Positions 265 to 501 of a stretch of DNA of 501 nt are shown here, piece by piece (positions within the stretch are counted from its first letter, which is position 1; the number at the start of each line of letters is the position of its first letter). Source of the stretch: Escherichia coli (GTDB lineage: Bacteria; Pseudomonadota; Gammaproteobacteria; Enterobacterales; Enterobacteriaceae); assembly GCF_003334335.1 (NCBI RefSeq), contig NZ_QOWQ01000180.1; one strand, 5' to 3'. The notes below the pieces were generated by a model that had not been told where the DNA came from, did no database searches, and worked only from the letters and a program-made list of their open reading frames with translations. The position numbers and the translations under genes are program-made.

Positions 265-501
265 ATGTCAGAAATAAAATCGCTGGTCACTGCTGAGGCA
301 GTGAAGGAAGTCCTGCGCTCTGAAGAAGTCCGGAGCGCACTGAAACAGCAACTTCGGCAGAACCTTGAGGCGCGTCTTGATGCAGAAGTGGATTCAATTC
401 TGGATGAATTGCTTGGTGCACAGCCGGAACCATCCCCGGAACTGCTTCCGGAACCACAGGCGGAAGATGTCACCACGGAAAATGGTGATATTCAGCCGGA
501 G
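265..501 (+). CDS. Hypothetical acidic protein, 3'-partial (79 codons or more, continues past the window end): N-terminal amphipathic helix or coiled-coil-like region followed by a Pro-Glu-rich low-complexity linker
   Basis: Seen in sequence: ATG at 265 with a weak SD-like GAGA (254..257) about 8 nt upstream. The frame stays open to the window edge. Translation: MSEIKSLVTAEAVKEVLRSEEVRSALKQQLRQNLEARLDAEVDSILDELLGAQPEPSPELLPEPQAEDVTTENGDIQPE. Leu/Val/Ile recur at i, i+3/4 spacing (L26, L30, L34, L38, V42, I45/L46, L49/L50), typical of an amphipathic helix. Codons are E. coli-typical (CTG, GAA, CCG, GCG). It lies 25 bp downstream of ORF1 on the same strand, consistent with an operon. It is missing from the supplied track only because it has no in-window stop. 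Confidence 0.6.
   Translation, partial: MSEIKSLVTAEAVKEVLRSEEVRSALKQQLRQNLEARLDAEVDSILDELLGAQPEPSPELLPEPQAEDVTTENGDIQPE
424..459 (+). repeat. Imperfect 12-bp tandem repeat (3 units) inside ORF2, encoding the Pro-Glu linker
   Basis: Seen in sequence: CCGGAAC recurs at 424, 436 and 448 with exact 12-nt periodicity. The units are ccggaaccatcc / ccggaactgctt / ccggaaccacag, encoding PEPS / PELL / PEPQ. Confidence 0.55.

Follow-up and report, generated by a model that had tools for sequence, protein, structure and literature searches.

A DUF826-family gene and its antisense shadow in the late operon of an Escherichia coli prophage

Background

Which strand of a short stretch of Escherichia coli DNA encodes a protein, when a program-made list of open reading frames (ORFs) points to one strand and the letters themselves seem to point to the other? 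The question arises in the right-hand half of a stretch of 501 nucleotides (hereafter the window, meaning the whole stretch that was analysed), where the list places a minus-strand ORF at 249-476. A preliminary description of the window, made from the sequence alone, held instead that a plus-strand frame beginning at an ATG at position 265 is a real gene missed by the list and that the listed minus-strand ORF is probably its antisense shadow. If that is so, further questions follow, namely where the plus-strand gene ends, where it starts, to which family it belongs and what its neighbours say of it.

In this study we extend the window into its flanking DNA, search both translations against profile collections, and compare the competing frames by codon usage and across homologous loci that range from about 90% down to 42% protein identity. 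We find that the plus-strand frame from 265 is a genuine gene, a small phage gene of the DUF826 family that annotation already records, and we hold with high confidence that positions 265 to 501 of the plus strand are the 5' four-fifths of a 96-codon DUF826 gene that starts at ATG 265 and lies in the late operon of a lambdoid E. coli prophage of the Stx-phage type. Nothing met in the analysis speaks against this gene call.

Results and discussion

Genomic setting of the window

Several E. coli chromosomes match the whole 501-base window at 100% identity (for example NZ_AP022815.1 1210549-1211049 and NZ_CP027340.1), and window-like DNA, at 80% identity or more, occurs in about 1000 of 5426 complete E. 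coli genomes, mostly in several copies each. The annotation under every E. coli match listed pairs a 'DUF1378 family protein' with a 'DUF826 domain-containing protein'. Matches are also found in 306 phage records, nearly all of them Stx-converting phages. The DUF826 family is carried by roughly one-fifth of complete E. coli genomes, and in many Stx phages it adjoins stx.

The source record (locus L001), of which the window makes up positions 6001-6501, has a gene order that runs RusA, antiterminator Q, DNA methyltransferase, three tRNAs, TerB, DUF3927 and a 660-aa SASA esterase of the nanS-p type, and continues after the esterase with DUF1378, DUF826, a class II holin S, lysozyme (endolysin), Rz, terminase and portal. 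The block from Q to portal lies entirely on the plus strand except for one 86-codon hypothetical CDS (L001 7434-7694). This prophage is without an stx gene, yet it has the late-region architecture of Stx phages. The left half of the window is occupied by the DUF1378 gene (Table 1), and PF07125 was found on the DUF1378-position neighbours of homologous DUF826 loci. Late operons of lambdoid phages are transcribed from a Q-antiterminated late promoter after prophage induction, and by analogy the DUF826 gene would be co-transcribed with its neighbours from such a promoter once the prophage is induced.

Table 1. Features of the window and its immediate flanks (window coordinates unless L001 is named)
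Feature	Position	Strand	Evidence or remark
Candidate promoter of a PasA/PasC/Esr41-like antisense sRNA	1-26	-	-35 TTGACA at 26->21; A/T-rich -10 straddles base 1
sRNA-like element body, just left of the window	L001 5986->5912	-	Weak Esr41 match; Rho-independent terminator
DUF1378-family gene, 64 aa	45..239	+	RefSeq CDS WP_024185459.1; PHROG 494 E=4.8e-37
Open upstream extension of the DUF826 frame, overlapping DUF1378 in another frame	91..264	+	GTG 91, TTG 151
75-aa antisense shadow ORF starting at GTG; not a gene	249..476	-	No family, no SD, codon score -16.7 bits
Weak SD-like GAGA, 7 nt before ATG 265	254..257	+	Anti-SD duplex -3.0 kcal/mol
DUF826-family gene, first 79 of 96 codons in the window	265..501 (full 265..555)	+	Identical to RefSeq WP_001824734.1
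Three tandem 12-nt units, CCGGAACC..., encoding PEPS-PELL-PEPQ	424..465	+	Direct repeat family D1
GC-rich hairpin of 12 bp immediately behind the DUF826 stop, with TTTGTTGTTG after it	L001 6565-6603 (window-equivalent 565-603)		Outside the window

A plus-strand gene of the DUF826 family

The plus-strand frame is open from ATG 265 to base 501, a run of 79 codons to the window edge, just as had been described. Followed downstream, it reaches its stop at window-equivalent positions 553-555, 54 nt beyond the window and not immediately past 501, which adds 17 further codons and gives a product of 96 aa. Profile searches place this product in a known family: Pfam PF05696 (DUF826) matched residues 1-57 with model positions 1-59 of 75 (hmmscan i-Evalue 2.4e-28, score 98.5), and PHROG 311 matched residues 1-96 with profile positions 1-85 of 85 (E=5.2e-37). 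Searches of NCBIfam and PADLOC gave no match for the product, and a PDB sequence search gave nothing significant, its single match having E=0.86. We found 101 homologues of the plus-strand product, nearly all of them carrying PF05696. An exhaustive HMMER scan of 1.84 billion representatives returned just 32 proteins at E<=0.001, which marks DUF826 as a small and narrow family. The comparisons reported here show directly the strand, the frame and the start codon of the gene, the family to which it belongs and its synteny.

The ORF list lacks this frame because the program that made the list omits ORFs that run off the source. With the flanks added, the plus-strand ORF was listed, as L001 6091..6555 and from a GTG. 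The description of a real gene missed by the ORF list was thus right in that the gene is real and is absent from the list, but the omission is a window-edge artefact of the lister and RefSeq already annotates the gene; since the exact protein has a RefSeq accession (Table 1), the gene is already known and is not one missing from annotation. A list that drops edge-touching ORFs may leave only an antisense shadow visible, and beyond annotation hygiene of this kind the result matters little.

The minus-strand open reading frame

Codon usage separates the two strands clearly. Under a log-odds model trained on 12 neighbouring annotated CDS, the plus frame scores +39.5 bits over its 96 codons, a host- and phage-like value that bears out the E. 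coli-like codon choice ascribed to it, against -18.4 bits for the minus ORF's frame; for the spans limited to the window the scores are +35.3 bits for the plus frame and -16.7 bits for the 75 codons of the minus ORF. All six frames were compared at eight loci (L001-L005, L007, L010 and L011); the comparison of identities also took in a further locus, L012. In 8 of 8 homologues the plus frame has no stop, which holds for none of the other five frames, and at each level of divergence it outscores the minus frame in both identity and BLOSUM.

We nevertheless considered whether the minus ORF could be a real gene, either in place of the plus ORF or as an antisense gene overlapping it. It is 75 codons long, its frame is open through the region of the N-terminal domain in all close relatives (at least 76% nucleotide identity), and its dN/dS resembles that of the plus frame, for which pairwise values among relatives are 0.04-0.33. 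The resemblance is to be expected, since the wobble positions of the minus ORF coincide with those of the plus frame, and pairwise dN/dS was accordingly dropped as a strand discriminator, its values being similar in both frames. The openness in close relatives also follows from the sense sequence: a stop in the minus frame needs a sense NNY-TAN or NNT-CAN, and the plus-strand protein has no Tyr and few such contexts. Among the four diverged homologues, three (L007, L010 and L011) do have stops in the minus ORF's frame within the domain region.

The remaining properties of the minus ORF weigh against a gene as well. Its coding score is negative on either span, and no Shine-Dalgarno (SD) sequence precedes its GTG, the upstream anti-SD duplex energy being +0.4 kcal/mol. 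Its 75-aa product is of low complexity, with 23 Ser, 9 Arg and 5 Cys, so that serine alone makes up 31% of it, and it matches no PHROG or NCBIfam family. A tblastn search with it found the same loci only, and these through residues 50-75 only, after low-complexity masking of most of the query. In the records examined the minus ORF is never the annotated feature; its transcription would oppose that of the late operon, and a search for promoter-like sites on its strand gave none. A protein-coding minus ORF is, on this evidence, next to impossible, and the ORF at 249-476 is a non-coding antisense shadow of the DUF826 gene.

What the preliminary description said of this ORF, its GTG start, its length, its lack of an SD sequence, its Ser/Arg/Cys-rich composition and its status as a shadow, is confirmed in every part, the status as a shadow by the missing family match, the negative coding score and the stops in diverged homologues. 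Two findings had been named there as telling against a plus-strand gene, homologues for the minus-strand product only, and a stop just past 501 together with an unconserved plus frame; what we observed was family matches for the plus-strand product and none for the minus, a stop 54 nt beyond the window, and a plus frame kept in all homologues compared. The minus ORF is a textbook case of the general artefact of antisense shadow ORFs, from which it shows no difference, sharing its third codon positions with the sense gene and having a Ser/Arg-rich product. Where wobble positions are common to a shadow frame and the true one, dN/dS is blind to the strand, and it is diverged homologues and codon usage that discriminate. 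The other listed ORFs in the window, at 20-154 (+), 268-351 (-) and 287-457 (-), are likewise shadows, out of frame or antisense, of DUF1378 and DUF826 and are unannotated in the records examined.

The start codon and over-long database forms

The strand being settled, the start codon presents a problem of its own, for the DUF826 frame is open back to window position 67, that is, for 66 codons upstream of ATG 265. A gene starting at TTG 151 (134 aa) or GTG 91 (154 aa) and overlapping DUF1378 would fit in this space. All close E. coli homologues keep the 66-codon extension open, forms of 134, 154, 148 and 139 aa are deposited in databases, and PHROG 8301 (139 positions) models the long form. 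The diverged homologues argue against such a start: in L007, L010 and L011 a stop interrupts the extended frame 8-27 codons before the ATG, and diverged homologues carry strong SDs at this start, with AGGAG, GGGAGG or ACGGAG standing 7-9 nt before the homologous ATG. In close homologues the conserved context of the start is ACGAGAAAATCC(C/T)ATG. The extension sequence itself is poorly conserved, with indels, and the codon score of 151-264 is -2.7 bits while that of the overlapping DUF1378 frame is positive. The Pfam model, moreover, begins at Met1 of the short (96-aa) form, and RefSeq uses ATG 265 for the exact window sequence. We consider an upstream start at TTG 151 or GTG 91 very unlikely. 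As judged from the sequence comparisons, ATG 265 is the real start of the DUF826 gene, and the extension at 91..264 is probably not translated.

The open upstream frame explains the over-long starts found in databases (134 and 154 aa). Among the original Stx2-phage annotations, 933W L0106 (148 aa) and VT2-Sakai orf43 (139 aa) represent the same locus and reading frame as the DUF826 gene of the window, with a DUF826 domain that is 88-92% identical; they differ from it in starting far upstream inside DUF1378, in leaving DUF1378 unannotated and in having other C-terminal tails. Many DUF826-family entries (those of 134-154 aa, L0106 and orf43) start too early and so swallow part of DUF1378. Fused DUF1378-DUF826 proteins in the databases were considered as true fusions and set aside, for they look like frameshifts or over-long ORF calls.

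Properties of the DUF826 protein

An alignment of 15 sequences resolves the protein into two parts. The N-terminal part is a conserved domain of about 52 residues, in which M1, T9, V13, K14, K27, V42 and G51 are invariant. From about codon 53 (window ~421) there follows a tail that is variable in length and sequence, always acidic and rich in Pro and Glu, and that usually ends hydrophobic, as ...(P)EPxTML (...GTML) or MMM. At the DNA level most relatives remain similar only up to window 421-432, where the tail starts. Tails of the 81-, 90- and 96-aa variants differ by in-frame indels at the 12-nt repeat region 424..465 (Table 1), and this tandem repeat is likely the source of the variation in tail length; the alignments mark the tail as the part of the DUF826 gene that varies by recombination and in length. 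The window copy is a member of the DUF826/PHROG 311 family without any difference from it, and it carries the longest tail variant (96 aa), with the 12-nt PE-x-x unit in triplicate.

The product is acidic, as had been described, with a pI of 4.05 and 22 Asp and Glu residues against 7 Lys and Arg, and its GRAVY is -0.60. It had also been called amphipathic, which is true only in part: hydrophobic residues recur at about every fourth position between residues 20 and 50, but the hydrophobic moment at 100 degrees is not above that of shuffled sequences. We therefore reject a classical amphipathic helix for residues 20-50, where the moment at 100 degrees lies below the shuffle mean and the peak is at 90-95 degrees, a periodicity of about 4 residues. 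The AlphaFold2 (AF2) model has helices at residues 10-17 and 20-50 with pLDDT 76-84, whereas residues 51-96 are of low confidence and mostly non-helical (mean pLDDT of the model 65). Foldseek searches of this model against BFVD and the PDB returned nothing at E<=0.001, a comparison that is uninformative for a model consisting of one long helix and a disordered tail. The model is consistent with a small, soluble cytoplasmic protein that would have a helical domain of about 50 residues, made of one short helix and one long helix with a hydrophobic stripe, followed by a disordered acidic tail.

Conservation of the plus ORF might in principle have another cause than its protein, acting at the RNA level or through hitch-hiking, with no functional protein made. 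Literature searches for DUF826, DUF1378 and L0106/L0107 yielded no expression data (Ribo-seq, mass spectrometry) and no functional data, DUF826 and DUF1378 being mentioned a single time and in passing as lying between nanS-p and S; the DUF826 gene is missing from some otherwise similar prophages, and the SD of the window copy is weak. Set against this are the plus-frame dN/dS values given above, the seven invariant columns and further near-invariant ones across 40-90% identity, and the retention of both ORF and start while DNA identity drops to 54-59%. The tail indels are, in addition, all in frame, and no Rfam family matches the DUF826 region. We regard conservation without a functional protein as extremely improbable and take the DUF826 gene to be a protein-coding one.

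The position of the gene invites comparison with holins, antiholins and the small proteins of lysis cassettes, for DUF826 is likewise small and its gene immediately precedes that of a class II holin in the late operon. It differs from holins and antiholins in having no transmembrane stretch (it has 22 acidic residues, and the AF2 model contains soluble-type helices only) and no holin Pfam match. It differs from lysis-cassette components in that some prophages carrying the same holin lack the DUF1378-DUF826 pair and that, in L007, the pair has no adjoining holin. A role as holin or antiholin was rejected: with no transmembrane helix, a negative GRAVY and no match to a holin family in Pfam, DUF826 is not a member of either group.

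Flanking RNA elements

The DUF1378-DUF826 pair is framed by two further elements. At the left edge, window positions 1-26 probably hold, to judge from sequence likeness, the promoter of an antisense small RNA (sRNA) similar to PasA, PasC and Esr41, whose body would lie just outside the window (Table 1). Against Rfam RF02676 (Esr41) the element scores 23 bits, which is below the gathering score of 102, with the whole model (1-74) covered. PasA and PasC are sRNAs of EPEC E2348/69 (bioRxiv 10.64898/2026.05.13.724894), and PasA is located on the minus strand at NC_011601 743499->743415, in the interval from the esterase to the gene that follows it (PMC8550237 table S6). Alignment of the element with PasA and PasC indicates positional homology, an invariant TTGACA and compensatory variation in the terminator stem.

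At the other end, a stable hairpin follows the DUF826 stop in every homologue examined, including that of the Mu-like L007. Its sequence differs by lineage, and a U-rich run usually comes after it. The hairpin looks like a conserved terminator or RNA-stability element that closes the esterase-DUF1378-DUF826 block.

Gene order and the DUF1378-DUF826 pair

The order esterase (DUF1737-SASA-DUF6645)-DUF1378-DUF826-holin is kept at 42-43% identity, and loci of 42-92% identity on plasmids, in phages and in metagenomes show the same gene order on the same strand. Two loci depart from it. In L007 (1594-4246 of the record of an Stx1a phage, LC727895.1) the trio esterase-DUF1378-DUF826 is diverged, at about 50% identity; it is flanked by a gin-type invertase and a DNA methyltransferase close to the end of a region annotated as an inserted Mu-like phage, and it has no holin beside it, a context which suggests that these three genes move together as a cassette, independently of the lysis genes. 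In prophage PP2 of E2348/69 the order is esterase-PasA-holin, without DUF1378 or DUF826. Since PP2 lacks both small genes and the L007 trio lacks a holin, the DUF1378-DUF826 pair is dispensable and, as these gene orders suggest, its link is with the esterase cassette and not with the lysis genes.

The two small proteins of the pair are opposite in charge, with a pI of 4.05 for DUF826 vs 9.18 for DUF1378. The AF2 model of DUF1378 is one long helix over residues 3-49, with a hydrophobic N-terminus and then a basic stretch. DUF826 could on these grounds be the acidic cytoplasmic partner of the adjacent, basic and membrane-anchored DUF1378. An AF2 model of a DUF1378-(G4S)4-DUF826 fusion had a pTM of 0.22 and brought no gain in pLDDT; it thus lends a complex no support, though the test is a weak one, as the paired alignment had 7 rows and contacts were not part of the output. 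That DUF826 and DUF1378 are partners, forming a dispensable accessory pair whose movement is tied to the nanS-p esterase cassette and not to the lysis genes, is a speculative proposal that we think unlikely to hold.

A broader proposal would take in the flanking elements too. The nanS-p esterase, the PasA/Esr41-like sRNA, DUF1378, DUF826 and the hairpin might together form one self-contained mobile moron cassette that shuttles between the late operons of lambdoid phages and the right end of Mu-like ones, with DUF1378 and DUF826 as a two-protein device within it. We judge this quite improbable; if it were true, the device might, for instance, determine how the signal-less esterase is released or localised, or adjust the membrane step of lysis.

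Annotation of neighbouring records

A few recent phage records label the DUF826 product a 'head completion protein'. We rejected this label, for PHROG 311 is classed as 'unknown function', neither profile nor fold supports it, and in the record of phage phiSTEC1589-Stx1c (PQ600364.1; locus L006, 1520-2025) it sits on a mis-started ORF by a frameshifted DUF1378. In that record the frameshift in DUF1378 is accompanied by mis-annotation of the locus as two artefactual ORFs. Besides L006, the label is given to DUF826 in PV340545.1, and it also appears at the locus in PQ600366.1.
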